A stretch of DNA of 64,000 nt, from positions 6,880-70,879 of the forward strand of contig JABIQV010000137.1 of assembly GCA_018699495.1 (NCBI GenBank), in the 5' to 3' direction. The position numbers and the translations under genes were made by a program. This document shows, piece by piece, positions 3,158 to 63,733 of this stretch (position 1 is its first letter; the number at the start of each line of letters is the position of its first letter). Origin of the DNA: a bacterium. GTDB lineage: Bacteria; Margulisbacteria; Marinamargulisbacteria; JABIPA01. The notes beneath the pieces were generated by a model that was given only the letters and a program-made list of their open reading frames with translations, did no database searches and was not told where the DNA came from.

Positions 3158-5935
3158 GTGGTGTATACTATTTTTATGAAAATAAAATTTGGGTTCCCAA
3201 TAATTGCGCTCGCTCTTGTAACTATTTTATCTTATCTGATTCTTCAGTTTTATCCCGATATCCTTTGGTTTGATTCGTTCGGCTATCAGCACGTATGGTG
3301 GGATGTATTTAAGATAAAATCGGTCGTGTTTCTGTCCGTTTTTCTGACCTCATTTATATTTTTATATATTAATTTAGGTATTGCAAAAAAGGTCTCTTCC
3401 GAAAAAAAGTCGGATTCATCTGGGCCAGCAACAAATAAAAATTTCGACATGTTATTAAAGATTTTTCCAGCTTTAGAGTCCTATAAGTTTTTAATAGACC
3501 TTCCAAAAAAATTAAATAATTTGTTTTTATTAGTAGGATCGTTGGTCATGTCGTTTTTCTTTGCTATTTCTTCGATACCAGATTGGGTGGAAGTCGCGTC
3601 GTTTTTTAATAAAGTCTCTTTTAATATTTTAGATCCAATTTTAAACACGGACGTAGGGTTTTATGTGTTTTCACTCCCATTTTTTCAACTGCTCTATCAG
3701 TGGGCAATCTCCGCCGTCGTGTTGGCCCTTATATTAAGTGTTTGGATTTATTTCAGCAGTAGCGTGGTACAACATCTGTTTAAAAAAGAATCTCCATCTT
3801 CAGGTGCAAAAATTCATATTTTTATTTTATTAAGTTTAATAGCATTTTTGTTTGGGTTTAAAACGTGGCTTTCAATTTTTCAGTTAACGTTATCTGATGG
3901 GGGCGTCGTTTTTGGAGGAGGGTTTGCAGACGTAAATGTTTACTTAGTTGGAATCCGATTATTTATGTTCGGTTTACTAGGATTTGGACTTGTATTATTA
4001 GTCAGCGGGTTTAAAAAAGGACTGCGAATCCCTTTAACTTATTTTGTTGGATTATTAATAGTTGGAGTGGGGGTTAAAATTGTACCGGGAGTTGTTCAGA
4101 ATTTATCAGTAGATCCAAATGAAATGGAGAAGGAAGTTCCTTATATTGCTCACAATATTGAGTTTACTAGGAAAGCATATGGGTTGGAGAAAATTAACGA
4201 ACAAGATTTTTCAGTTACTTACAATTTGACGGCCGAAGATATGAAAGCGAATAAGAACACGATAAAAAATATTCGCCTTTGGAATTTAGATCCTATCAAG
4301 CAAACCTTTCGTCAATTGCAAGAAATTAGGCCTTATTACGAGTTTCTAAATGTTGATGTAGATAGATATAAAATCAATGGAGAATTAAGACAAGTTATGT
4401 TGTCTGCAAGAGAAATGAACACATCTGAGTTGTCTGAGAAGGCTCAGTCATGGGTGAATAAACATTTATTTTATACACATGGGTATGGGGCCGTAATGGC
4501 GCCAGTCGACGAGAAAACGTTAGAAGGTTTACCGAAGTTTACCATTAAAAACATTCCCCCTGAATCAAGTGGGACAGTAGATATCTCGAGACCAGGAATC
4601 TATTTTGGAGAGAGAAAAAATCCATATAGTATTGTTAATACGACGCATGAAGAGTTTGATTTTCCGGTTATGGGCGACGATTCTTACGAGAAAACAGTCT
4701 ATAAAGGACTGGGGGGTGTAAAACTTTCGTCATGGGTGCGACGGTTACTTTATGCATATAGATTTTCAGATATAAATATTTTTATTTCCCCATTAATAAC
4801 GTCTGAATCTAGAGTAATTTACGATCGTCATATTGGGTTGATTTCTAAAAAAATTGCTCCCTTTTTAGCTTATGATTCGGACCCTTATTTGGTCATTGAT
4901 GACAAAGGCCATATGGTGTGGCTACAGGATGCATATGTCTTGTCCAAAAATTATCCGTATTCGGAACCTTTTGATGGCAGGTTTAATTACATAAGAAATT
5001 CGGTGAAAATTACGATTGATGCGTATAGCGGCGATATAAATTATTACATTGCAGACCAGGAAGATCCTATCGTAAAAGTATTCAATAACATTCTACCTGA
5101 CTTATTTAAGCCAATTGGTCAGATGCCTATGGATTTGAAGAAACATATTCGATATCCAAAGTCTCTTTTTGTTGTGCAGTCTCAAATTTATAAGACGTAT
5201 CATATGACCAACCCAAAAGTCTTTTACAATCGAGAAGATGTTTGGAATATTCCATTTGAACAAGATGGAACGACAAAAAAGGTTAGAGAACCTTATTACA
5301 TGATATTGAAGTTGCCCGGAGAAGAAACAGAATCGTTTATTTCGATGATTCCATATACACCGGCAAACAAAAATAATATGGTTGCATGGTTAGGTGTCAC
5401 CTGTGATCAGTCGAATTATGGTCAACTTAATGTTTATAAATTTCCAAAAAATCGGACGATATTTGGGCCCACTCAAATAGAATCTCGTATTGATCAAAAT
5501 ACGGAAATTTCTCAGAAATTGACCCTTTGGGACCAATCTGGTTCGGGCGTTCTTCGTGGAAATATAATGATCATTCCAATCGAAAATTCGTTGATTTATG
5601 TAGAGCCAATTTATTTGCAGGCGACCCAAAGTAAATTGCCGGAACTAAAACGTATTATATTAGGGTATGACAACACAATTTCTATGGGAAGTACGTTGGA
5701 GGAGGTAATAGAAAAAACGTTTCCATCCAAGGAAAAAAAACAAGACAATATAATTCGGACACAGGTATCTGTAATCTCTGAAACAGATGAAGATAGTAGT
5801 GGAAACTCTATTAAACGAGTGATCGGCGAGTTGCGCAATAATATTAATCAGTTAAAGCAAAATATTTCAGAAATAACGAAGCAACTTGATTCTGCCTTAA
5901 ACTCTGTTATAAAATACGCCGAAAATACAGAGTGA
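3158..5935 (+). CDS. UPF0182 family membrane protein
   Basis: 925 aa with an N-terminal multi-TM domain, then a large soluble region (YTHGYGAVMAPVDE, WLQDAYVLSKNYPYSEPF). Size and architecture match the UPF0182 family found in actinobacteria and Leptospira. Confidence 0.65.
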   Translation: MVYTIFMKIKFGFPIIALALVTILSYLILQFYPDILWFDSFGYQHVWWDVFKIKSVVFLSVFLTSFIFLYINLGIAKKVSSEKKSDSSGPATNKNFDMLLKIFPALESYKFLIDLPKKLNNLFLLVGSLVMSFFFAISSIPDWVEVASFFNKVSFNILDPILNTDVGFYVFSLPFFQLLYQWAISAVVLALILSVWIYFSSSVVQHLFKKESPSSGAKIHIFILLSLIAFLFGFKTWLSIFQLTLSDGGVVFGGGFADVNVYLVGIRLFMFGLLGFGLVLLVSGFKKGLRIPLTYFVGLLIVGVGVKIVPGVVQNLSVDPNEMEKEVPYIAHNIEFTRKAYGLEKINEQDFSVTYNLTAEDMKANKNTIKNIRLWNLDPIKQTFRQLQEIRPYYEFLNVDVDRYKINGELRQVMLSAREMNTSELSEKAQSWVNKHLFYTHGYGAVMAPVDEKTLEGLPKFTIKNIPPESSGTVDISRPGIYFGERKNPYSIVNTTHEEFDFPVMGDDSYEKTVYKGLGGVKLSSWVRRLLYAYRFSDINIFISPLITSESRVIYDRHIGLISKKIAPFLAYDSDPYLVIDDKGHMVWLQDAYVLSKNYPYSEPFDGRFNYIRNSVKITIDAYSGDINYYIADQEDPIVKVFNNILPDLFKPIGQMPMDLKKHIRYPKSLFVVQSQIYKTYHMTNPKVFYNREDVWNIPFEQDGTTKKVREPYYMILKLPGEETESFISMIPYTPANKNNMVAWLGVTCDQSNYGQLNVYKFPKNRTIFGPTQIESRIDQNTEISQKLTLWDQSGSGVLRGNIMIIPIENSLIYVEPIYLQATQSKLPELKRIILGYDNTISMGSTLEEVIEKTFPSKEKKQDNIIRTQVSVISETDEDSSGNSIKRVIGELRNNINQLKQNISEITKQLDSALNSVIKYAENTE

Positions 5936-5942
5936 GGTAAGA

Positions 5943-6209
5943 ATGCCAACATACGAATATAAATGCAAATCATGCACACATACCTTTGATACGATTCAGT
6001 CCATGAAAGATGACACGTTAACCGTTTGTCCGGAATGCAATGGAGAAATATTTAGAGTTATCGGTAAAAATATAGGGATATCATTTAGTGGTCCAGGGTT
6101 CTACGTTACAGATTCCAAGAAGTCTGAAAAGACGGAGTCTGTAAAAAAAGAAAGTAGTAAAAAAAAGGATAATCGGTCTTCAGAGTTAAAAAAACAGAAG
6201 GCTTGTTAA
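5943..6209 (+). CDS. FmdB-family zinc-ribbon protein
   Basis: MPTYEYKCKSCTHTFDT...CPECNG has the CxxC...CxxC zinc ribbon with the characteristic MPxYEYxC N-terminus. Lys/Ser-rich tail. Starts 7 nt after UPF0182. Confidence 0.75.
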   Translation: MPTYEYKCKSCTHTFDTIQSMKDDTLTVCPECNGEIFRVIGKNIGISFSGPGFYVTDSKKSEKTESVKKESSKKKDNRSSELKKQKAC

Positions 6210-6466
6210 TTTAGGCTGAGATTTATTTTTAGAGTTACGGAATAGAATTCTAAAACGAGTGTATAGGCATTGCTTCGCCTAAATTCTTTGAGGGTATCCT
6301 TTACAGGCAACTTATTTAGCTCGTTTGGGTTGGGCAATGGTGATTCCTTCATTAATATCTCCTTGGTACTTAATTGGTTCCCAAAATTGGAGGTTTTCAA
6401 ACATTCAATTTTTTAAATATTAAATGAAATCATACAAAATGAACCGGTAATATCTTATTTTTTAGA

Positions 6467-6826
6467 TTGTTACAGTCTCTCAATAAACAGTGCTTGTCTG
6501 AAGGGAAAAATAACCTTTATAATGGGTATAGAATTCCGTATTCGTTTATGATTAAAAAAATAATATTTGTAGAACCAACCAGTTTGGGAAAATGTTTAGC
6601 AATTTTAGTGTCATTTTTGACCTTTCTTATATTAGGGCCATTGATGGTACAGGCTGTTATAAATGGAAAATTTGATTTTAGAGCAGGCATGATTTATTTG
6701 ATATTTTTATTGATTCAACCGTTTCTAGGCTTTTTCTTAGGGACTTTGATAGGGTACGTTTATAATTATTCGGCCAAAAAATTTGGAGGAATAGAAATTA
6801 TTTTTGAAGAAATGAGCACAGAATGA
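6467..6826 (+). CDS. small two-TM membrane protein heading the beta-oxidation operon (probable true start ATG about 6548)
   Basis: Hydrophobic segments LAILVSFLTFLILGPLMV and LIFLLIQPFLGFFLGTLIGYV. Stop overlaps the start of the acyl-CoA ligase (ATGA-type coupling). Confidence 0.4.
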   Translation: MLQSLNKQCLSEGKNNLYNGYRIPYSFMIKKIIFVEPTSLGKCLAILVSFLTFLILGPLMVQAVINGKFDFRAGMIYLIFLLIQPFLGFFLGTLIGYVYNYSAKKFGGIEIIFEEMSTE

Positions 6827-9977: not shown

Positions 9978-12097
9978 TGAAAACAACTAATTTTTCCTTA
10001 ATTACGAAAAACGGGATAGGTAGATTAACATTTGATTTGGAAGATGAAAAAGTAAATAAACTTACAACGCCTGTGATGAAGGAATTAAATAAATTATTAG
10101 ATGAACTGAAGCATAAAAGAGAAATAAAAGTACTTATTTTTTGTAGTGCTAAAAAGGATATCTTTATTGCAGGGGCCGATATCAGGGAAATTCAAGATAT
10201 ATCGGATCCTTCTGAAGGTGAAAATAAGGCGTTAATGGGGCAAGCCGTTTTAAATAAAATCGAGGCGCTCCCATTCCCGACTATTTCAGCAATTGATGGA
10301 GCGGCGTTAGGTGGCGGGTGCGAGTTTGCTTTAGCTTGTACATTTCGAATCGCTTCAGACAATCCAAAAACACAGTTAGGACTTCCTGAAGTAAGTTTAG
10401 GAATTATACCTGGATTTGGCGGAACGCAGCGGTTACCAAGACTTATCGGAGTCAGTAAAGCGATGCCATTGATATTAACAGGTAAATCGATCGACCATAA
10501 AAAATCAGAAAAAATTGGATTGATAGATGCGTTCTATTCTCAGGCATTTTTTGATGATGGCGTAGAATCTTTTGCAAAATCGATCATAGAAGGATCTTCT
10601 GAAAAACGTATTGAAAAAAGGAGAAAGAAGCAATCCTTTTTGATTGATAATACTCCTATTGGACGAGCAATCGTTTATAAAAAGTCTCAAGCATCTGTTT
10701 TAAAGATGACGAAAGGGCATCTTCCAGCCCCTTTGAAAGCAATTAAAGCCGTTAAGTATGGACTAAAAAAGTCATTAGAAAAAGGGCTCATTGTAGAAGC
10801 TCAATATTTTTCAGATTTAGTTGTTACGGATGTCTGTAAAAATTTGATTCAACTATTTTTTACTGGGGAAGAACTGAAAAAGTTTTCTGGTGTAAGAGAC
10901 CAAGTATTAAGTAAACCTGTAACCTTTAAAAACGGTGGTGTTCTTGGTGCCGGTTTAATGGGAGGCGGAATCGCATGGTTATTAAGTTATAGAGGGTTGA
11001 ATGTTCGATTAAAGGATATTGGATGGGATGCCGTTGCAAAGGCATTTCATACGGCTGATAAAATCTATTCTCAGTTGGTAAAAAAACGGCGTATTAAACA
11101 TATAATGAAATCTGTATATATGAATCGATTATCTGCTACCATCACTAACTCAGGCTTTTATCATTCTGACATTATTGTGGAGGCCGTTGTCGAAAATCTG
11201 GACATTAAAAAAAGTGTGTATTCAGAACTTGAGCCTCGCATAAAATCATCGGCCATTATTGCCTCAAATACGTCGGCCTTAGACATAACAGAACTTGCAG
11301 ATGGTTTGAAAAATCCGGAACGTTTTATAGGCATGCATTTTTTTAGTCCAGTAAATAAAATGCCGCTTGTAGAAATTATTCCTGGGGAAAAAACATCTGA
11401 TAAAACCGTGATGGAAACGGTAGCTTTTGTAAAACAATTGAAGAAAACGCCGATTGTTGTTTCGAACTGTCCGGGGTTTTTGATTAATCGGATATTAATG
11501 CCGTATGTTACAGAAGCTATTAAAATGGTTTCAGAAGGTGTGAGTATTAAATTGATTGATAGTGTCGCTGTTAAATTTGGCATGCCGCTTGGTCCGCTCG
11601 AATTGGCGGATGAAGTGGGCTTAGATGTTGGCTATAAAGTGGCAAAAATTTTAGAAGATGGATATGGAGATCGAATGACAGTAGATTCGTTTTTTGAATC
11701 CATTCACAGAAAAAAAGAGTTATTAGGCAAAAAGTCAGGAAAAGGATTTTATATTCATAATAGTGGCAAAAAAGAAGTTAATCCAGAAATTTCACTCGGT
11801 AAAAAAAGCAATTGTTCAGCCTCGATAATCGAAGAACGGTTATTTTTTATTATGATTAATGAAGCGGCTCGATGCATCGATGAAGGTGTTGTCGATAACC
11901 CAAGATTTTTAGATATGGCTATGTTAATGGGGACAGGATTCCCTGTGTTTAGAGGAGGCCTGTGTCGATATGCCGACACGATCGGTGCATCATTAATAGT
12001 TGATAGGCTAACGTCTTTAGAAGAAACGTGTGGGAATCGGTTTAATCCTGCAGATTTATTGATAACGTATAGAGACGAACGTAAGAGTTTTTATTAA
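9977..12097 (+). CDS. fadB: fatty-acid oxidation complex alpha subunit (enoyl-CoA hydratase / 3-hydroxyacyl-CoA dehydrogenase, FadB/FadJ-like)
   Basis: N-terminal crotonase fold (AIDGAALGGGCEFALAC), central NAD Rossmann (GVLGAGLMGGGIA), C-terminal 3HCDH domains. GTG start with a ggagg RBS. 706 aa. Confidence 0.85.
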   Translation: MKTTNFSLITKNGIGRLTFDLEDEKVNKLTTPVMKELNKLLDELKHKREIKVLIFCSAKKDIFIAGADIREIQDISDPSEGENKALMGQAVLNKIEALPFPTISAIDGAALGGGCEFALACTFRIASDNPKTQLGLPEVSLGIIPGFGGTQRLPRLIGVSKAMPLILTGKSIDHKKSEKIGLIDAFYSQAFFDDGVESFAKSIIEGSSEKRIEKRRKKQSFLIDNTPIGRAIVYKKSQASVLKMTKGHLPAPLKAIKAVKYGLKKSLEKGLIVEAQYFSDLVVTDVCKNLIQLFFTGEELKKFSGVRDQVLSKPVTFKNGGVLGAGLMGGGIAWLLSYRGLNVRLKDIGWDAVAKAFHTADKIYSQLVKKRRIKHIMKSVYMNRLSATITNSGFYHSDIIVEAVVENLDIKKSVYSELEPRIKSSAIIASNTSALDITELADGLKNPERFIGMHFFSPVNKMPLVEIIPGEKTSDKTVMETVAFVKQLKKTPIVVSNCPGFLINRILMPYVTEAIKMVSEGVSIKLIDSVAVKFGMPLGPLELADEVGLDVGYKVAKILEDGYGDRMTVDSFFESIHRKKELLGKKSGKGFYIHNSGKKEVNPEISLGKKSNCSASIIEERLFFIMINEAARCIDEGVVDNPRFLDMAMLMGTGFPVFRGGLCRYADTIGASLIVDRLTSLEETCGNRFNPADLLITYRDERKSFY

Positions 12098-12158
12098 GAG
12101 TGTTTGGACAACTTGGCGCGTGGGTATAGCTAAGTATAAATGATCAGGAGGATCCTAT

Positions 12159-14057
12159 TTGAAAATATCAGATAATCTCGAGAAACAAGCTGCGTTGGAT
12201 TTAACGGAGGATTCGAGAGAAGAAGAATGGAAGTTTGAAAGTTTTGTTGGTGAGCTATTTAAGGGGAATTTTAGATGGGATTTAATTCATCCTTATCGCG
12301 TACAACCTGAAGCGGACAAAAAAATTGGGGATAAGGTTTGTTCTGAGTTAGAGGGTGTATTAAAAGAATATATTGATCCAGATGCAGTTGATAAAAATGA
12401 AGAGGTTCCAGAGTCAGCCTTAAATGCATTGAAAAAGCATGGGTATTTTGGAATGAAAATTCCAAAGGAATATGGAGGTATGGGTTTATCTGTCGTAAAT
12501 TATACCCGAGCAATGGCTTTGGTGGGAAGTTATTGTGGATCAACAGCTGTATGGTTATCCGCACATCAGAGTATTGGGGTGCCGCAACCTCTAAAAATGT
12601 TTGGGACAAAAAGTCAAAAAGAAAAGTATTTTCCTCAATTAGCAAAAGGAGCTGTATCGGCATTTGCTTTAACGGAACCAGATGTAGGATCCGATCCCGC
12701 AAAAATGACCACAACAGCGACCCCTGTAGATGGGGGTGACAATTATTTAATCAATGGAGATAAATTATATATTACAAATGGTCCAGTGGCAGATTTGCTC
12801 ATTGTTATGGCAATGACACCTTCTATAATTGTTGATGGAAAAGAACGAAAACAAATTACTGCTTTTATAGTGCCTACGGATGACCCTGGGTTCGACGTAA
12901 TTCATGAATGTTCGTTTATGGGGATAAGAGGAATAAAAAATGGGTGGCTAAGATTTACAAATGTTAAGGTATCAAAGACGGATATTATTGGGCCTCTTGG
13001 TAAAGGATTAAAAGTTGCATTAGCCACATTAAATACAGGGCGATTAACGATTCCTGCAATATCAACAGCATCTGGAAAAGCGTGTATGGTAATGACAAAG
13101 CATTGGGTAAATGAACGTGTTCAATGGGGTAACAAAATTGGTAACCATCAGGCCGTTCAAATTAAATTGGCAAAAATGGCCGCTGACACATTTGCCATGG
13201 AAAGTATTTCTGACTTAACAGCGGTATGGGCGGATAATGAAAATGCTGATATCCGGTTAGAAGCAGCTATGGCAAAGTATTTCGGCTCTGAAGTTTCGTG
13301 TGCGATAGCCGATGAAACGCTTCAAATTCGAGGTGGACGAGGGTTTGAAACGGCTGAGTCATTAAGAGCAAGAGGAGAATCTCCTTTTCCAGTCGAAAGA
13401 ATGGTAAGAGATTTAAGAATTAATCGGATAATAGAAGGTACTAGCGAAATTATGCAGCTTTTTATTGCAAGAGAAGCGATGGACGTTCATATAAAATTTA
13501 TAATGGGAATATTAAGCCCTAAAAAAGGAACGTCTTTATTAGGGGCTTTTTGGAAGGCAATAAAGTTTTATAGTATTTGGTATCCAAAACAATGGGTTCG
13601 TTTACCAAAATTATATAATGTAAATGGATTGTCACGGGCAAATCGGTGTCATCTGACATATATTTCAAAGACGAGCAAAAAATTGGCGAGGGCCTTGTTT
13701 CATACCATGGGTAAATATCAGACTAAACTTGAAAAGGAACAAATGATTTTGGCAAAATTTGTCGATATTGGAACGGATTTATTTGCAATGTCAGCAAGTT
13801 TGGCTCATGCAGAGTATCTCCTATCTCAAGATAATGCAGATAAAAATATTCAAAACGTCGTCAACCTTTTTTGCACGCAGGCAAGGCATCGGATTAAATC
13901 AAATTTTAAACTAGTTTCAAAAAAGGATCGTAAGTTGATTCAGGTGGTGAGCCAATGGTTGGTAGACGGTGATATTTCAGAACGAACGCAAGGAATTGTT
14001 CAGCCCGAAATTGTTTCTCAAAAAAACGGCCCAGAAACCAGCCCAAAAAATGGCTAG
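12159..14057 (+). CDS. acyl-CoA dehydrogenase with C-terminal extension (FadE-like)
   Basis: ACAD N/M/C domains (FALTEPDVGSDPA, ...QIRGGRGFE... catalytic region) plus about 200-aa C-terminal extension as in bacterial FadE. TTG start with a caggagga RBS. Confidence 0.85.
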   Translation: MKISDNLEKQAALDLTEDSREEEWKFESFVGELFKGNFRWDLIHPYRVQPEADKKIGDKVCSELEGVLKEYIDPDAVDKNEEVPESALNALKKHGYFGMKIPKEYGGMGLSVVNYTRAMALVGSYCGSTAVWLSAHQSIGVPQPLKMFGTKSQKEKYFPQLAKGAVSAFALTEPDVGSDPAKMTTTATPVDGGDNYLINGDKLYITNGPVADLLIVMAMTPSIIVDGKERKQITAFIVPTDDPGFDVIHECSFMGIRGIKNGWLRFTNVKVSKTDIIGPLGKGLKVALATLNTGRLTIPAISTASGKACMVMTKHWVNERVQWGNKIGNHQAVQIKLAKMAADTFAMESISDLTAVWADNENADIRLEAAMAKYFGSEVSCAIADETLQIRGGRGFETAESLRARGESPFPVERMVRDLRINRIIEGTSEIMQLFIAREAMDVHIKFIMGILSPKKGTSLLGAFWKAIKFYSIWYPKQWVRLPKLYNVNGLSRANRCHLTYISKTSKKLARALFHTMGKYQTKLEKEQMILAKFVDIGTDLFAMSASLAHAEYLLSQDNADKNIQNVVNLFCTQARHRIKSNFKLVSKKDRKLIQVVSQWLVDGDISERTQGIVQPEIVSQKNGPETSPKNG

Positions 14058-36121: not shown

Positions 36122-38034
36122 TATTTGTAACTCCTTTGTGCAAGATCAATTGCCGAGTATTCGAGTTTCTCTTTGTGAAGTTCTTGTGGTTTGTTTTCAC
36201 CTTTGTGTTCCCATGCTCCAACATAACAAAATTTATCATCTTGTCGCAGAGCTTCGCCTTCTTTGGTTTGGCTTTCTTCTCTAAAATGGCCACCGCAGCT
36301 TTCTTCTCTATGAAGAGCGTCACGCACCATTAATTCACCAAATTCTAAAAAGTCAGCAACTCGCCCAGCTTTTTCTAAGCTAGAATTAAGATTGTTACTG
36401 TCACCAGGAACCTTTAGGTTTTTCCAAAATTCTTCTCTTATTTTTGGAATTTTTTCTAATGCTTCTTTTAGACCTTCTGCGTTTCTAGACATTCCACATT
36501 TGTCCCAAAGTAACATTCCCAATTCTCTATGAAAATCATCAGCAGTTCGTTTTCCATTAATATTCAATAAAGTATTCACTCTATTAATTACGTCTTGTTC
36601 TGCTTGTTTGAATTCAGATTGGTCAGAGTTACAAGATCCAGGCGTTTCGTCCGCTAAAAAGTTTCCGATAGTATAAGGAATGACAAAATACCCATCTGCT
36701 AATCCTTGCATAAGCGCACTAGCACCTAGTCTATTTGCACCATGGTCAGAAAAGTTAGCTTCACCAAGTACGAACAGTCCAGGGATATTGCTTTCCAAAT
36801 TATAATCGACCCAAAGACCACCCATTGTGTAATGAATTGCGGGGTAAATACTCATAGGGGATGTGTATGGGTCGCTTCCGGTAATTCGCTCATACATTTC
36901 AAATAAGTTTCCGTATCGAGCACGAATTGTATTTTCTCCAAGTCTATCAATCGCGGCAGCGAAGTCTAAATAAACAGCGAGTCCAGTTGGACCAACTCCT
37001 TTTCCATCGTCGCAAGCATATTTTGCATTTCTGGATGCCAAATCACGTGGAACTAAGTTTCCAAAGCTTGGGTATTTTCGTTCTAGGTAATAATCTCGTT
37101 CATTCTCTGGAATGTCTTTAGGATCTCGTGTATCACCCTTTTTTTTCGGAACCCAAACTCTACCATCATTTCGTAAGCTTTCACTCATCAGGGTAAGTTT
37201 AGATTGGTGGTCTCCGTGAACTGGGATACATGTTGGATGAATCTGTGTGTAACAAGGGTTCGCAAAGTAAGCTCCTTTTTTATGAGCTCTCCAAGCTGCC
37301 GTAACATTACATGCCATTGCATTGGTTGAAAGATAAAATGCATTTCCGTATCCACCGGTAGCAAGTATTACCGCATCGGCAGAATGGCGTTCTATTTTAC
37401 CTGTACGAAGATTTCGAACAATAATTCCTTTAGCCTTACCGTCAACAATAACAAGTTCCATCATTTCACGACTTGTGAATAATGTAACGCCGCCTTTGTT
37501 TACTTCTTTCATCATTGCTTGATACGCACCAATTAAAAGTTGCTGTCCAGTTTGACCTTTAGCGTAAAAGGTTCGAGAAACTTGAGCGCCTCCAAATGAT
37601 CGATTGTCTAATAGGCCACCATAGTCTCTTGCAAAAGGCACGCCTTGAGCAACGCATTGGTCGATAATGTTTACACTGATTTCTGATAATCGATGAACGT
37701 TCGCTTCTCTTGAACGGAAGTCTCCACCTTTTACAGTATCATAAAATAAACGATGAACACTGTCTCCATCATTACAATAATTTTTAGCGGCATTAATACC
37801 ACCTTGAGCAGCAATGCTATGAGCACGTCGTGGGCTTTCATGAAAACAAAAAGCATTTACGTTATACCCAAGTTCAGAAAGAGAAGCCGCCGCAGAACTT
37901 CCAGCAAGTCCTGTCCCAACAACAATAACCGTATATTTACGTTTATTTGCTGGGTTAACCAATTTCATATTAAATTTATGATTCGTCCATTTTTCGTTAA
38001 TAGCCCCTTCTGGAATATTTGATTTTAAATCCAT
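36121..38034 (-). CDS. sdhA: succinate dehydrogenase / fumarate reductase flavoprotein subunit
   Basis: [15 protein letters not shown] site, covalent-FAD His region ([10 protein letters not shown]), catalytic HYTMGG and RLGASAL motifs. Confidence 0.9.
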
Positions 38035-38043
38035 AATTTCCTC

Positions 38044-38715
38044 CTACGCCGTTGGCGCAAATCCTAGATAAATTAGGATTGCAATCGCACTAAAACCAAG
38101 CATTAAACCAGTAGCTAATCCTACGCTCGTTTTTTTAATGAGATGGTTATATTTTTCGCTGAATATCCCAAATGTTTGAAAAACGCTTTGTATTGCATGC
38201 GATAAATGGCAACCTAAAGCGGCTAAACCAATACAGTAGCCGATAACTCTAAATATATTTTGAAAATAATTGTAAACAAGCCCATATAAACCTAAGTCTT
38301 CCCCCATAACGATACTCGCAGCACCATGATGATTCGTAAAACGAAAGTCGATAAGATGAAAAATAATAAATATAAGAAGAGCCGTTCCAGATATTGGCAT
38401 AATTTTGACCAAGATTTTTGTTGCAACTTCTTCTCGATATCCTTTTTTACGTGCACGCTTATTTTCGACAACAATTTTAAATGTTGTAAATAAATGAAGA
38501 AGGAAAATTCCAAGTAGGCCGAATTCAATAACATAAAGAAATGGTTTCGTAGATTGAAGGGTGTTTACCCAAGCGTTAAATACGTCTGGACCTTTGAATA
38601 AAAGAAAGTTCTCAAGCAGATGAATAACCACAAATGCACTCAACATAAGTCCAGTAAGAGCGGCTATTTGTTTTTTCCCAATTGATGACGCAAAATATTG
38701 TTTAATAGGTAACAT
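38044..38715 (-). CDS. sdhC: succinate dehydrogenase cytochrome b subunit (single-subunit, 5-TM type)
   Basis: 223 aa and 5 TM helices, with His residues positioned for bis-heme ligation (HLLENF, HLFTTF, HLIDF, HLSHAI). Directly upstream of sdhA. Confidence 0.7.
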   Translation of the reverse strand: MLPIKQYFASSIGKKQIAALTGLMLSAFVVIHLLENFLLFKGPDVFNAWVNTLQSTKPFLYVIEFGLLGIFLLHLFTTFKIVVENKRARKKGYREEVATKILVKIMPISGTALLIFIIFHLIDFRFTNHHGAASIVMGEDLGLYGLVYNYFQNIFRVIGYCIGLAALGCHLSHAIQSVFQTFGIFSEKYNHLIKKTSVGLATGLMLGFSAIAILIYLGFAPTA

Positions 38716-38728
38716 ATGAATTTCCTTT

Positions 38729-39667
38729 TTAACCTACGGTTAAAGCTAATTTATCAACAACGGTTTGAACAGCTTGAGCTGAAGACTGAAGTGATTTTTT
38801 TTCGCTTTCATTGAGGTTTAATTCAATAATTGATTCTATTCCATTTGCCCCAAGTGCAACTGGAACGCCACAGTAAAGGTTATCGATTCCATATTCGCCA
38901 TTACAAAGTGCACATACAGGAAGAATTCGTTTTGAATCCAAAACTATAGCTTCAACCATTGCTACAGCAGAAGACGAAGGAGCATAGAAAGCGCTGCCTG
39001 TTTTTAGAAATTTGACGATTTCAGCTCCACCGTGTTTTGTTCGATTATTAATTTCTTCGATTTTTTCAGCAGGTAATAATTCAGTAATAGTAATTCCATT
39101 TACAGTAGAAAATTGTGGTACGGGAACCATTGTATCTCCGTGGCCACCTAATACCATTGCTCTAACATCTTTAATAGAACAATTTAAAGCTTCAGCGATA
39201 AAACAAGCATATCGAGATGAATCCAAAACACCAGCCATTCCAAATACTTTTTTGGAAGGAAGGCCAGACTTTTGCCACGCCAAGTGAGTCATGACATCTA
39301 AAGGATTAGAAACGATAACAAATATTGCATTTGGAGAATACTTAGTCGCTTGTTCTACAACACTGCCAACTATTTTTGCATTTGTATTTAAAAGGTCATC
39401 TCTAGACATGCCAGGTTTTCGTGCTATTCCTGCTGTTACTACAAAGATGTCTGAATTTGCTGTGTCTTCGTAATTGTTTGTTCCTATGATTTTTGTGTCA
39501 AAGCCTTCTACAGCAGCAGATTGCATCATGTCTAATGCTTTTCCTTGAGGCATTCCCTCTACGATATCAATAAGAACGACATCAGCAAGTTGCTTTTCTA
39601 CGATTCGCTGAGCGGCAGTTGCCCCTACAAATCCTGCCCCTACTACTGTTACTTTATGCTTAGCCAT
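38729..39667 (-). CDS. mdh: malate dehydrogenase (LDH-like, NAD-dependent)
   Basis: [19 protein letters not shown] Rossmann fold. Substrate-specificity Arg in [13 protein letters not shown]. Catalytic His in [10 protein letters not shown]. Confidence 0.9.
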
Positions 39668-39755
39668 ATTAATGCTCCTTTAATTATATTAGATTAATTA
39701 GTTTATTTTATGAAAATTTTATGTTTAACAAGACGTCATTATAGCGAGGAATTAT

Positions 39756-59829: not shown

Positions 59830-60245
59830 TTTTGGTTTTCCAATCAGAATTAGTTGTTGGGCTATTTTTACTAGGTTAACTAGAGAATCAAGGACTTTTT
59901 TTGGTTAGATGTAGATGAAGAAGGGAGATGATAAGTCGCAATTCTTGACGGTAAAACAGGGACGGAAATAGTATCGGAAGAGAAAATATGTCCATCGGCG
60001 CTCATTTGGGGCAAATAAACAATGGTAGACGAAGCGTCTGGTAAGTATTCTGGGCGTCTCCAATTCATTGCAAATTTCTTTCCCTTTTTTAGTAAATTCA
60101 AAACGTTAGTCTATAACTGATAGCTAGTTTAATACATATCGACATGAACTGCATTTCTTTTCGGAAACAAAAAAAAATGCTAAACTTATAGTGATTCCAT
60201 ATCTATATATTACTGGCTTTTTGTTATAAAAAGGAGACGTTTTTA

Positions 60246-62555
60246 ATGTTTATTTCCCAAAATTTACTGTTCTACTTTGGTGTAGGAGCTGGTCTCCTTT
60301 CGTTGCTCTATTCCTTTATAACCCGAGTGTCCTTGGCAAAGGATAAGGACTGCTCTAATTCCAAAGATTTAATTCAGCGGATTAAAGATGGTGGAATTGC
60401 ATTTTTCAAACAGCATCTAAACATTATTTTAATTCCCATTTTCATACTGAGTATAGTTTTTTACAAATTTGATGGGTTAGGCGGTCATCATATGGTGTTG
60501 GTGGTAGCCTTTGTATGGGGATGTTCTTGGTCAGGAGTTAGTGCTTTTATAGGTATGAAAATGTGTTCGACTTATATTCCTAAAGTGGTGCACGCAGCAA
60601 AATCATCGTTCGGTATTGCTGCAGCTACATCTTTAAAAGTAGGACGGGTATATGCCTTTTTAATTGTAGGCTTGGTTCTAGTCGATTTTTCGGTATTTGT
60701 CGCATTAGTGGATTTCATAATAGATAATAACTGGCTTAATATTTCCGACAGATTGCTAACAGATATAGGCGCTGGATACCCCTGGTCGAAGGACGTAATA
60801 AGTTCAGATGCTTTTATAGAAATGAAAATTGGGGAAATTTCGTATAGTGCGCTAGCGTATTGTTTTGGCGTGTCTATTCAGTCTGTTTTTATTAAAGTTG
60901 GGGGCGGCCTTTTTACCAAGATTAGTGACGTAGCTTCAGATGGGTTTGGTAAAAACGACGTTGAACTAAGTGGTAAAGATGTCAGGAACCCTATAGTGAT
61001 TTCTGACTTAGTTGGGGGCCAGGTGAATAATATTGGGGGCGTTGGTGTAGGGATATATCAAATAATAACGTTAGCTTTGTTTACTGTCAGCGCTATTGGG
61101 AGTATTTTTGCACACCATCAATTAGTGGGATATACCCCTGAACATTTATTTAAGCTTCCATTCTTTTTATTTGGAGTGGGTGTCGTCGCTGCAATGATTT
61201 CATATTTGTTTCTTTCAATAAAAAATGTACAGACTAAGCTGCGATTGAAAAAGAGCCTATCATTTACGCTTGCTGGTACAGGCTTATTGATTATTCTTTT
61301 TGTAGGCGGTTTGGGGCACTTTGAATTATTAGGATGGAAAATGATTTCACCAGTAATTGTCGGGGTTTTTATTGCTATTTTAATTGAGCAGTGGACGGTT
61401 TATTTTACGTATTCGGACAGCTCGATATCGCGATCTGTTACGGTCTCATCCCGAGAGGGAGATGTATTACCCTTATTAAGAGGTGTTGGGCATGGGTTTT
61501 TGGCAATTTTACTTCCCGTTGTTTTGGTAACGATAGGAATAATTTCTGGTTTTTTTCTTTTTGATGGAGTTGAAAACGTAATGAAGGGGTTTTATGGGAT
61601 TTCTCTGGTAGGTGTCGGTGTTGCATCGTTATTACCATGTTTCATAATTAATGCCATTGTTGGACCAGTAAATAATAATGCATTTGGATGCGCTTCTATG
61701 CTTAATTATGATGAAAAAATTATAGATCGAACCAGGAAGTTAGCTGATCACGGGAATATAACATCTGGCGTATTCAAAATGATTGAAAACGCGCTTATGT
61801 TATTGTGCGGATTGCCCTTAGTTATTATATTTTTTGATTATTTTTTGAGGGTTATGAAGGAATCTGGTCTAACATCTATTATTTATGTTGAAGGACATGG
61901 GTTTACCGTCTCAGAAAAATTAGCGTATGCAAAAGGTGTGTATTTTATTCCAAATATGAGTATAAACGCCTTGCTTGATATTTTTGATGTGCGGTTGCTT
62001 AATCCTTATACAATTGCTGGTTTTTTAGGTGGGTTTATGTTGTTTTCTGTAATTACAGGTATTATTTTTATTATCGTTTCAAATGGAGCAACTCTACTTA
62101 TTAGAGAAGCCAGAAATCAGATCACTCAAGATGAATTAATTATGGACGGTGAGTCGCTCCCAAACTATCAATCTATTATAGTTACAGCCGCCAAATATTC
62201 ACAAAAATGGATGTTGTTACCGGTGGTCTTTACATGTTTCGCACCTTTTTTAGTAGGAAGTACACTTGGTGTTGCTGGAACTATCGGATTTCTCATGGCG
62301 AGTTTGTTTTTTTCGTTTTGTATTGTGACTATATTTTTAATCACCGGTGTTGTATTAGAGTCAGCTAAAAATAGATATGAAGCTCATGAAAACGGTTCCA
62401 TTGCGAATCCTGCCCTTGTACTAGCAGGTAATTTTGGACACGTCTTAAAAGACGCTGTCGCTCCTATTATTATGCCCCTTATGAAGATTACCATGTTGAT
62501 TTCGATAGTGTTTTGGCCATTAGTGTTAGTGATGAAGACGCTACTAAGAATTTAA
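60246..62555 (+). CDS. membrane-integral pyrophosphatase (H+/Na+-PPase) homolog with degenerate catalytic acidic motifs
   Basis: 769 aa, about 16 TM helices. Collinear with M-PPase signatures (GGGLFTKISDVASDGFGK, RNP, GPVNNNAFG, GNITSG, VLKDAVAP), but canonical Asp of [16 protein letters not shown] and GDTIGDPLKD are replaced by G/N/Q/H. Confidence 0.65.
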   Translation: MFISQNLLFYFGVGAGLLSLLYSFITRVSLAKDKDCSNSKDLIQRIKDGGIAFFKQHLNIILIPIFILSIVFYKFDGLGGHHMVLVVAFVWGCSWSGVSAFIGMKMCSTYIPKVVHAAKSSFGIAAATSLKVGRVYAFLIVGLVLVDFSVFVALVDFIIDNNWLNISDRLLTDIGAGYPWSKDVISSDAFIEMKIGEISYSALAYCFGVSIQSVFIKVGGGLFTKISDVASDGFGKNDVELSGKDVRNPIVISDLVGGQVNNIGGVGVGIYQIITLALFTVSAIGSIFAHHQLVGYTPEHLFKLPFFLFGVGVVAAMISYLFLSIKNVQTKLRLKKSLSFTLAGTGLLIILFVGGLGHFELLGWKMISPVIVGVFIAILIEQWTVYFTYSDSSISRSVTVSSREGDVLPLLRGVGHGFLAILLPVVLVTIGIISGFFLFDGVENVMKGFYGISLVGVGVASLLPCFIINAIVGPVNNNAFGCASMLNYDEKIIDRTRKLADHGNITSGVFKMIENALMLLCGLPLVIIFFDYFLRVMKESGLTSIIYVEGHGFTVSEKLAYAKGVYFIPNMSINALLDIFDVRLLNPYTIAGFLGGFMLFSVITGIIFIIVSNGATLLIREARNQITQDELIMDGESLPNYQSIIVTAAKYSQKWMLLPVVFTCFAPFLVGSTLGVAGTIGFLMASLFFSFCIVTIFLITGVVLESAKNRYEAHENGSIANPALVLAGNFGHVLKDAVAPIIMPLMKITMLISIVFWPLVLVMKTLLRI

Positions 62556-62872
62556 GAGGTTCAAGCAAGGTATTGGTTTTTATCGATAAAGGTGACGGGG
62601 CTTCAATAAAACGACCAAAGTGAGAGTGCGTTTAGTAACGATCACGATAGGGTTAATCCACCTAAAATTTGGTTAAAGAGGAATGACGGGACTATGAATT
62701 TTTTATGATGGAGTTGTCAAAATTTGAAACTGTTTAACAGATTTTTCGATATGAGGACCAATGAAAGACAGATATAACGCGTTTCTTCAGTCTACACGAT
62801 TTAGTATTTCGTATTCTTTTGTATGTGGGTCGTTTTTGGTTCGCTCAAAGGTTTAGTGCTAAACTTAATATA

Positions 62873-63733
62873 ATGGATAATATTTTTATTATAGGACCTA
62901 CAGCAATTGGGAAATCGGAATATGCGTTAAACCTCGCACTGTCAATGAAAGGCGATATTGTATCGGCCGATGCATTCCAAGTATATAAAGGAATGGATAT
63001 TGGAACGGCAAAGGTAATAGAGGCGGGGCAACAATCTGTAAAACATCATCTTATCGATATCCTTGAACCCGATGACCCTTATTCTGTAGTAGAATTTATT
63101 AGACGGTCAACTTCTTTACTAGAAGCATCAAAAATAAATGGGCGTCCGTTAATTTTTTGTGGAGGAACGGGGTTTTATGTAAATGCTTTTCTGTACAATT
63201 ATGAATTGACGGGCCCTGGTGAAAACACCGATATCAGAAACGAATTACTTTTAGAAAAAAGAGGAAAAGAACCCACTTATTTATGGAATAAGTTAGAGAA
63301 AATCGATAAAGAAGCCTCCCTTGTTTTGAACCCCAATGATGAGAAGCGACTGATAAGAGCGATAGAATATAAATTAGAAACAGGATTGAGTATTACGTCT
63401 TTGAAAAAGAACGAGTCAATACGGTCTGATTTTAAAGTGATAGGATTAACGGCAGAAAGAGAGCGGATTCGAGAGAGAATCGATATCCGGGTAGACCAAA
63501 TGTTTGCAGCGGGTCTTGTTGGGGAAGTTGAAGCATTATTAGAAAAAGGATTTTCCCCCAAATTAAAAGCCTTCGAGGCAATAGGGTATAAAGAGGTTAT
63601 CGCGTATTTGGAAGGTAGTATGGGGTTAGAAGAAGTGATAATATTAGTCAAAATAAAAACAAGGCAATTTGCCAAACGGCAAATGAATTGGTTTAAACGA
63701 GTTCAAAATGTTGAATGGATCACCATCAAGTAA
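62873..63733 (+). CDS. miaA: tRNA dimethylallyltransferase
   Basis: P-loop IIGPTAIGKSEYAL. DAFQVYKGMDIGTAK. 304-aa tool ORF with the probable true start at the internal ATG (MDNIFIIGPTA). Confidence 0.9.
   Translation: MDNIFIIGPTAIGKSEYALNLALSMKGDIVSADAFQVYKGMDIGTAKVIEAGQQSVKHHLIDILEPDDPYSVVEFIRRSTSLLEASKINGRPLIFCGGTGFYVNAFLYNYELTGPGENTDIRNELLLEKRGKEPTYLWNKLEKIDKEASLVLNPNDEKRLIRAIEYKLETGLSITSLKKNESIRSDFKVIGLTAERERIRERIDIRVDQMFAAGLVGEVEALLEKGFSPKLKAFEAIGYKEVIAYLEGSMGLEEVIILVKIKTRQFAKRQMNWFKRVQNVEWITIK

Follow-up and report, generated by a model that had tools for sequence, protein, structure and literature searches.

The 64,000-nt stretch of bacterial DNA analyzed here (contig JABIQV010000137.1, positions 6,880 to 70,879; in the following, the window) carries a gene for a 769-aa protein which, judged by profile matches and predicted fold, is a member of the superfamily of membrane-integral pyrophosphatases (M-PPases; EC 7.1.3.1 / 7.2.3.1), and in which the residue pair activating the water nucleophile and the ionic gate are both broken. 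On balance, sequence comparison and structural modelling favor a selected, non-catalytic M-PPase descendant, i.e., a pseudoenzyme, most likely serving as a non-enzymatic membrane scaffold. The coordinates of the gene and of its motif blocks are collected in Table 1.

Membership in the superfamily was evident along the entire length of the protein. The profile of PF03030 (H_PPase) was covered at positions 2–645 of 645 (E = 7e-85, 286 bits), and phmmer recovered the enzymes of Thermotoga (4av3, E = 2e-37) and Vigna (4a01, E = 3e-34). A previous reading of the window from the letters alone (the sequence-only reading) had pointed to collinear M-PPase motifs and a preserved M-PPase scaffold. The motifs are real according to HMMER and MAFFT alignments, and the scaffold reappears in the AlphaFold2 (AF2) model as the 16-helix M-PPase fold (pLDDT 84.4, pTM 0.88; input alignment dominated by canonical enzymes), for which Foldseek returned the Thermotoga, Vigna and Pyrobaculum structures (4av3, 5lzq, 4a01 and 8b37) with TM scores of 0.79–0.89. 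The best match in both sequence and structure was TmPPase, the K+-dependent Na+-translocating enzyme of Thermotoga maritima (4AV3/5LZQ, NF001954/NF001960; TM 0.80–0.86). Both proteins have the multi-helix architecture, the collinear motifs and the residues K5.58, K15.64, K16.38, D5.61, D5.65, D6.35, D16.39, K12.50 and K16.50. However, identity is 20–21%, the scores of 266–288 bits stay below the cutoffs of the two TmPPase-type models (546–894), and the window protein lacks D6.43, D6.50, E6.53, S6.54, D16.46, D11.50, R5.50, E5.76, D5.77, D6.39, D11.57, D16.31 and D16.35, with D15.61 changed to Glu. The H+-translocating M-PPases VrPPase (4A01) and PaPPase (8B37) similarly share PF03030 and the fold (TM 0.79–0.89, rmsd ~3–3.7 Å) but differ in the catalytic and gate residues, which the window protein has lost, and in the E6.57-type acceptor, which it does not have. 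None of the 12 equivalog M-PPase models of NCBI was reached (154–288 bits versus cutoffs of 546–1321), the best score being 287.5 bits against a cutoff of 894.

Columns of the active site were assigned by pairwise HMMER alignment and by three MAFFT alignments, all of which agreed, using the helix numbering and the lists of hydrolytic-center and gate residues of PMC6882861, with the Vigna numbering given alongside. The canonical reference consisted of 92 canonical hits, none of which deviated from the canonical residue at any of six scored Asp columns (283, 287, 294, 507, 691 and 727); column 723 was tabulated from later alignments, outside this six-column table. Along helices 5 and 6, the window protein has K217 in place of R242/5.50, G243 for E268/5.76, K244 for D269/5.77, G258 for D283/6.39, N262 for D287/6.43, G269 for D294/6.50, Q272 for the gate residue E6.53 and I273 for S6.54. 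Farther along, A470 stands for D500/11.50, N477 for D507/11.57, E705 for D691/15.61 (a conservative change), G728 for D723/16.31, H732 for D727/16.35 and M743 for D/N16.46. The hydrolytic center of M-PPases contains 12 acidic residues, namely D5.61, D5.65, E5.76, D5.77, D6.35, D6.39, D6.43, D11.57, D15.61, D16.31, D16.35 and D16.39 (PMC6882861). Eight of them are replaced, D15.61E included, and four are unchanged: D228 (D5.61), D232 (D5.65), D254 (D6.35) and D736 (D16.39). All three PPi-contacting lysines (PPi, pyrophosphate) are present as K225 (K5.58), K708 (K15.64) and K735 (K16.38), and D245, N504 (N534-equivalent), K511 (K12.50), K747 (K16.50) and S210 (S5.43) were also kept.

The statement of the sequence-only reading that nearly every catalytic Asp is replaced was thus correct in direction, with eight of the 12 acidic positions changed, but overstated, as D228, D232, D254 and D736 are still in place. 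Its comparison of GNFGHVLKD with the expected GDTIGDPLKD rightly recorded the loss of both Asp, but its register was one residue short: correctly aligned, A-G-N-F-G-H faces G-D-T-V-G-D, and D16.31 corresponds to Gly728, not Asn729. The HMMER and MAFFT alignments confirm the loss of Asp at D6.39, D6.43, D6.50, D11.57, D15.61, D16.31 and D16.35.

That the lost residues are essential for hydrolysis and ion gating, as had been stated there, is borne out by the literature (PMC5150537, PMC10897367, PMC6882861). The attacking water needs D6.43 together with D16.39, and with D16.39 alone "the enzyme is inactive" (PMC5150537); D6.43 and D6.50 are the "catalytical essential general bases" (PMC10897367); and the Na+/H+ site is made of D6.50, E6.53/6.57, S6.54 and D/N16.46 (PMC6882861, PMC5150537, PMC10897367). 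In the window protein, N262 occupies position 6.43 and leaves D736 alone from the activating pair, the gate positions read G269, Q272, I273 and M743, and only K747 and S210 remain of the gate residues. Position 6.57 is Leu276 by reading of the alignment, leaving the protein without an E6.57-type proton acceptor. With D6.43, D6.50, the gate and most of the Mg2+ ligands lost, the protein should be unable to hydrolyse PPi or to pump H+ or Na+ by the canonical mechanism. As the defining functional features are missing (acidic center, nucleophile pair, ionic gate, equivalog scores), the protein should be classed neither as a pyrophosphatase nor as an ion pump. That it still hydrolyses PPi and pumps ions by means of alternative residues is very improbable. 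D16.39, the three lysines and four Asp ligands remain and the family match is strong over the full length, but D6.43 and D6.50 are described as essential and the D16.39-only state as inactive (PMC10897367, PMC5150537), eight of the 12 acidic Mg2+ ligands are replaced (one of them D to E), the Na+/H+ gate is destroyed, and the score is far under every equivalog cutoff. Moreover, the closest relative outside the immediate lineage (the sister, introduced below) kept the ligands, so the loss in the window protein would be recent and non-compensated.

The gene itself is well supported. Separate assemblies from ENA and Logan contain a protein with 99% identity; it differs at seven amino acids, none of them at catalytic columns, which excludes the sequencing error that the sequence-only reading had already argued against. 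JGI/ENA has another member of the same 90% cluster. Only one other close relative was found among 5.8 billion clustered proteins and when 1.84 billion representatives were scanned exhaustively with HMMER, the 82%-identical HOG98_00190 from the metagenome-assembled genome (MAG) "bacterium SI072_bin107" (the sister, locus L001); the next match in these searches was 27% identical. The window and sister loci are syntenic on both flanks. The dN/dS ratio (omega) between the window and sister genes was 0.076 (Nei–Gojobori; dN 0.097, dS 1.29), an imprecise value because dS of ~1.3 is near saturation, and one that averages both lineages; 10 neighboring genes gave 0.04–0.18 (gltX 0.068, PGM 0.075, miaA 0.067). 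By these sequence comparisons, the open reading frame (ORF) is a genuine gene that looks translated and evolves under purifying selection, neither an artefact nor a pseudogene. An error of assembly or sequencing, or a chimeric contig in the MAG, might be suspected from the homopolymer frameshift in the adjacent IMPase-like gene and from the indel-rich related assembly L003, but it can practically be dismissed: the changes are substitutions across four motifs and not indels, the same residues are found in the NCBI, ENA and Logan assemblies with the same 90% cluster present also in JGI/ENA, synteny with the sister extends to both sides, and the independent assemblies effectively refute this explanation.

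The IMPase-like gene just mentioned (PF00459; 59053–60069, minus strand) is divergently transcribed and has a 1-nt frameshift near ~59897 within an A-run ("NQKK"), so that the first 57 codons and the 281 after them are read in different frames. It is intact (338–339 aa) in the 99% relative L004 and in the sister, and the frameshift is either a homopolymer assembly error or a real, recent inactivation. In L003 (ENA ERZ10646505 contig_16505), many genes are split in two (carbohydrate kinase, pterin-binding protein, PGM, CNNM/CorC); this assembly looks indel-rich, and its gene truncations are therefore not to be taken as biology.

The window protein belongs to a rare clade of M-PPase-like proteins in which catalytic residues are lost as a rule and which, outside the window lineage, are encoded in a module with two partner genes. 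Many of the best matches in the exhaustive search were degenerate at the catalytic columns, the nearest members being P0125, P0231, P0200 and P0237. These share with the window protein the derived motifs DLVGDQVN, DDLRNP, GE(S/T)LP(D/N)Y, SQKW and GDVLKD..AP, which are absent in canonical enzymes. The clade-specific patterns DLVGxQVN, GE[ST]LP[DN]Y, SQKW and VLKD..AP are all found in the window protein, in the versions SDLVGGQVNN, GESLPNY, SQKW and HVLKDAVAP, together with the clade-defining loss of D6.43, D6.50 and D11.50 (N262, G269 and A470). An insertion of ~30 residues between helices 12 and 13 is absent in other clade members and in canonical enzymes (Table 1).

Retention of individual residues was counted over 16 module-type proteins. 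D6.43 and D6.50 were each kept in a single protein (1/16), D11.50 in none (0/16) and D15.61 in three (3/16). In comparison, D6.35 and D16.39 were kept in all 16, R5.50, D5.61 and D5.65 in 15/16, D6.39 and D11.57 in 14/16, and D16.31, D16.35 and K16.38 in 13/16. The hallmark of the clade is accordingly the loss of water-activating and ion-gating residues with the Mg/PPi ligand cage kept. The cage residues D6.39, D11.57, D16.31, D16.35 and R5.50, which 13–15 of the 16 members retain, read G, N, G, H and K in the window protein, and the loss of R5.50 is confined to it among the 16 proteins. Relatives such as EXS67 (L037/L165), P0125, P0231, P0200, P0097, P0138 and the sister thus share with it the loss of D6.43, D6.50 and D11.50, whereas the window protein has additionally lost R5.50, D6.39, D11.57, D16.31, D16.35 and E5.76. 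The only other cage-loss outlier among the 16 is P0111.

Members came from Candidatus Margulisiibacteriota (L037, on the same contig as L165), Candidatus Marinamargulisbacteria (L042, L059), unclassified bacteria (L050, L171) and metagenomes (L085, L159, L166–L170, L172, L173). DNA-pattern scans of genomes and metagenomes yielded mostly canonical M-PPases, with degenerate ones only at L037, L042, L050, L059, L085 and L159, and hence say little about the abundance of the clade; a profile search of a large protein database, which drew on the same candidates again, brought up none of the clade members. Among the 150 best matches of the exhaustive search, ~25 were degenerate M-PPase-like clusters (P0096–P0244); P0099, P0101, P0111, P0126, P0132, P0156, P0171 and P0202 were non-canonical at 12–18 of the 18–21 catalytic columns scored. 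On these sequence matches, the non-catalytic M-PPase branch is diverse and each of its lineages is rare.

Comparison with the sister shows that degeneration proceeded in steps. D5.77, D6.43, D6.50, E6.53, S6.54, D11.50 and 16.46 are lost in both proteins. The sister keeps R5.50, E5.76, D6.39, D11.57, D15.61, D16.31 and D16.35, so these seven residues were replaced on the window branch after the split (R217K, E243G, D258G, D477N, D705E, D728G and D732H). Polarization of the window–sister differences with outgroups gave 36 window-specific and 30 sister-specific changes, and there was consequently no general acceleration on the window branch. The window-specific changes include the seven just listed as well as D500A, K716N and H721N, and the sister-specific ones are conservative swaps at variable sites. 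At the ancestral canonical columns, 7 of 17 changed in the window lineage versus a background of ~9% per site (binomial P = 3.7e-4), which indicates that it was the Mg/PPi-binding cage, rather than the whole protein, from which constraint was lifted.

Outside the window lineage, a gene for a small protein (100–154 aa, without a Pfam match) lies directly 3' of the PPase-like gene in 15 of 15 loci, in many of them with a 4-nt overlap of stop and start codons, and is followed by a further Pfam-less, usually large protein (the large partner) wherever the contig continues (390–919 aa where seen at full length). The small partners, described as alpha/beta proteins, are homologous: a profile built from seven of them found the other seven with E-values from 1e-31 to 1.5e-6. 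In a control search of 17,969 ORF segments from 174 fetched loci (2.2 Mb), the profile of all 14 matched only positions directly 3' of degenerate PPase-like genes, and none was found beside ~150 canonical M-PPase genes (Fisher p ~ 1e-21). Among 5.8 billion proteins, this very rare family was represented by five clusters, none of them with a name. Apart from a weak match to the LeoBC model, searches of the partner proteins against Pfam, NCBIfam and PADLOC gave no significant family. This PADLOC model matched ~100 residues each of the large partners of the sister (L001, 12752–14830, aa 328–441; E = 1.3e-9) and of L171 (8593–10356; E = 1e-4). The bacterial LeoABC proteins are dynamin-like and possess a glycine-rich hydrophobic paddle (PMC4159319). 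A glycine-rich hydrophobic hairpin lies within the matched stretch of the sister. No GTPase domain was seen in either of the two large partners, and the match, which probably reflects this hairpin, should be taken as a lead only.

The large partners were also considered as one family, which was rejected in favor of at least two unrelated families plus unassigned ones. On the Margulisbacteria-type contig L166, genes for an ECF sigma factor and an NrsF-type anti-sigma factor (5480–6660) are located directly 5' of the module, and an additional 684-aa Pfam-less gene follows the large partner. At L171 (MAG GCA_050250935.1), counterparts of the mdh and succinate-dehydrogenase/fumarate-reductase-type genes of the window lie directly 3' of a complete module (10398–14011; 36124–39679, minus strand, in the window); they are 76–77% identical, the cytochrome subunit 49%. 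Such identity makes the organism of GCA_050250935.1 a fairly close relative that still has both partners. An affinity of the source organism to Margulisbacteria is suggested by the nearest named MAGs that bear the module and by a PPIase with 63–64% identity.

The sister has genes for 146-aa and 692-aa proteins between the PPase-like gene and miaA. In the window and its 99% relatives (L003, L004), both are absent and a 263-nt spacer leads to miaA, which starts at 62819. Within the spacer of the window lies a small-partner relic (Table 1) that aligns to residues ~72–117 of the small protein of the sister, KYYVLSINLKGLQLNEKSDVGISKYQYSFNTNKMRLNGKDVTKEFV, with ~30% identity (tblastn E = 4.5e-6); the N-terminal ~70 codons and the C-terminus have been deleted. 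The large partner left no tblastn trace in the window and is deleted. The relic is far more diverged than the 82%-identical PPase-like protein, which suggests that the partners were lost well before the present and that the ORF has been constrained since then.

The main rival explanation is that the gene is in the earliest phase of loss, the module having become useless after the deletion of the partners and the ORF being still open for lack of time. The relic of the small partner, the deletion of the large one and the hits at the seven family-invariant residues replaced on the window branch would fit this, as would the seven nonsynonymous and three synonymous changes relative to the 99% relatives (omega ~0.7). 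This explanation is nonetheless unlikely, since the 2,310-nt ORF is intact in independent assemblies, its omega of 0.076 equals that of housekeeping neighbors, there is no rate excess over the sister and the ribosome-binding site is conserved. In addition, a relic with ~30% identity and a stop indicates an old partner loss relative to the window–sister split, and the PPase-like ORF is clean. The recent nonsynonymous excess over neighboring genes was not significant (Fisher p = 0.10), so that a recent relaxation of selection is suggested by the 7:3 ratio without reaching significance.

Several points weigh against a selected, non-catalytic scaffold, the reading favored here. Partner loss along with active-site erosion is what early decay of the whole module would also produce, and the partner genes could lie elsewhere in the genome, beyond the 64-kb window. 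P0111 (L172) has lost the ligand cage and kept both partners; cage loss is thus not strictly tied to partner loss, and the cage is dispensable in at least one partner-bearing lineage. The recent omega of ~0.7 and the near-saturated, lineage-averaged estimate against the sister belong here as well, as does the AF2 alignment, from which fold retention is partly inherited. Finally, the tree of the clade is a rough neighbor-joining one only.

A further question is what an M-PPase scaffold might do when it no longer hydrolyses PPi. The ligand cage is preserved in most clade members, which makes it plausible that the scaffold served the ancestral module for binding Mg-PPi or for anchoring; its M-PPase-like component was probably a membrane-embedded Mg-PPi-binding or anchoring subunit for the partners. 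The window protein would now most likely be a ligand-independent structural membrane protein, and any residual anion binding may involve the Lys triad K225, K708 and K735 and the four remaining Asp. A more far-reaching proposal, which can be put forward only tentatively and is rather unlikely as a whole, is that all three proteins of the module (degenerate M-PPase-like, small alpha/beta and large variable) are parts of a hitherto unrecognised three-component membrane system, in which an ancient ion-pump scaffold turned into a non-hydrolysing Mg-PPi receptor or membrane anchor controlling its partners; the window protein would then be an "orphan" scaffold selected for a partner-independent role.

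A different fate, raised in the sequence-only reading as a channel, transporter, regulator or different chemistry, would be the repurposing of the scaffold as a passive channel, a transporter or an Mg2+-free binder of anions or phosphorylated ligands via K225, K708, K735, K217, K244 and H732. K225, K708, K735, D228, D232, D254, D736 and K747 have been retained under selection, the replacements move the pocket from strongly acidic toward neutral or basic, and the modelled fold appears intact. Conduction would, however, have to do without the known path, which is removed by the change of D6.50, E6.53, S6.54 and 16.46 to G, Q, I and M and of D11.50 to A. The two close sequences alone do not allow a new conserved polar network to be made out, and no transporter-type neighbors or regulatory context were found at the window and sister loci. 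As the idea is also purely inferential, repurposing of this kind is improbable.

The preferred reading of a selected, non-catalytic scaffold has no precedent in the literature consulted. In reviews, M-PPases appear as a homogeneous family of primary pumps whose active site hardly varies; one from 2022 lists subfamilies that are all catalytic and notes the absence of M-PPase homologues among known ion pumps. Nothing relevant on inactive, pseudo or degenerate M-PPases, or on a pyrophosphatase of Margulisbacteria, turned up in 8 million full texts, and the degenerate clade with its conserved gene module has apparently not been described. Like pseudoenzymes in general, i.e., catalytically deficient homologues kept for non-catalytic roles (PMC5106787, PMC10211241), the window protein combines a conserved fold and purifying selection with missing catalytic residues; the literature search gave no example of a pseudoenzyme among membrane pyrophosphatases. 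The gene would thus be a concrete case of a membrane-pump pseudoenzyme and points to a selected non-catalytic branch of the M-PPases, tied outside the window lineage to two uncharacterised partner genes. Canonical enzymes, members that lack D6.43 and D6.50 and keep the cage, and the window protein without cage and partners form a natural series in which the role of the scaffold without hydrolysis can be addressed. There is also a practical side: in JGI/IMG, the window-type and sister proteins carry the automatic name "K(+)-stimulated pyrophosphate-energized sodium pump" (NCBI PGAP: hypothetical), which in metabolic reconstructions would wrongly ascribe PPi-based energy conservation to Margulisbacteria-like and related uncultivated lineages.

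Table 1. Features of the M-PPase-like gene and its immediate surroundings (positions in the window).
Feature	Residues	Position	Strand	Description
Shine-Dalgarno AGGAG		60232..60236	+	9 nt before ATG; also in sister genome
M-PPase-fold gene	769 aa	60246..62555	+	Intact ORF of 2,310 nt; NCBI MBT6121440.1, "hypothetical protein HOH45_08270 [bacterium]"
Helix 5-6 motif block	215-272	60888..61061	+	FIKVGGGLFTKISDVASDGFGK...RNPIVISDLVGGQVNNIGGVGVGIYQ; keeps K225, D228, D232, D254; lost R5.50, E5.76, D5.77, D6.39, D6.43, D6.50, E6.53
Helix 11 motif	470-481	61653..61688	+	AIVGPVNNNAFG; A470 for D11.50, N477 for D11.57
Helix 12 motif	503-511	61752..61778	+	GNITSGVFK; N504 and K511 retained
Lineage-specific insertion	~541-580	61866..61985	+	Window and sister only; in the AF2 model two short strands of low confidence
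Helix 15-16 motif block	701-747	62346..62486	+	GVVLESAKN...LAGNFGHVLKDAVAPIIMPLMK; keeps K708, K735, D736, K747; lost D15.61 (E705), D16.31 (G728), D16.35 (H732), 16.46 (M743)
Small-partner relic		62568..62705	+	RYWFLSIKVTGLQ*NDQSESAFSNDHDRVNPPKIWLKRNDGTMNFL (asterisk, in-frame stop); 12 nt after the stop codon of the PPase-like gene

Within the 64-kb window, neither a second M-PPase homologue nor a canonical hppA or a soluble pyrophosphatase was found, and a scan for promoters and terminators gave sites no more numerous than in shuffled sequence. The term paralog, used in the sequence-only reading, is therefore putative. The ORF at 63277–63675 (minus strand), located inside miaA, is probably spurious. 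A strongly positive GC skew runs along the window except at 34–40 kb, where the genes are on the minus strand.

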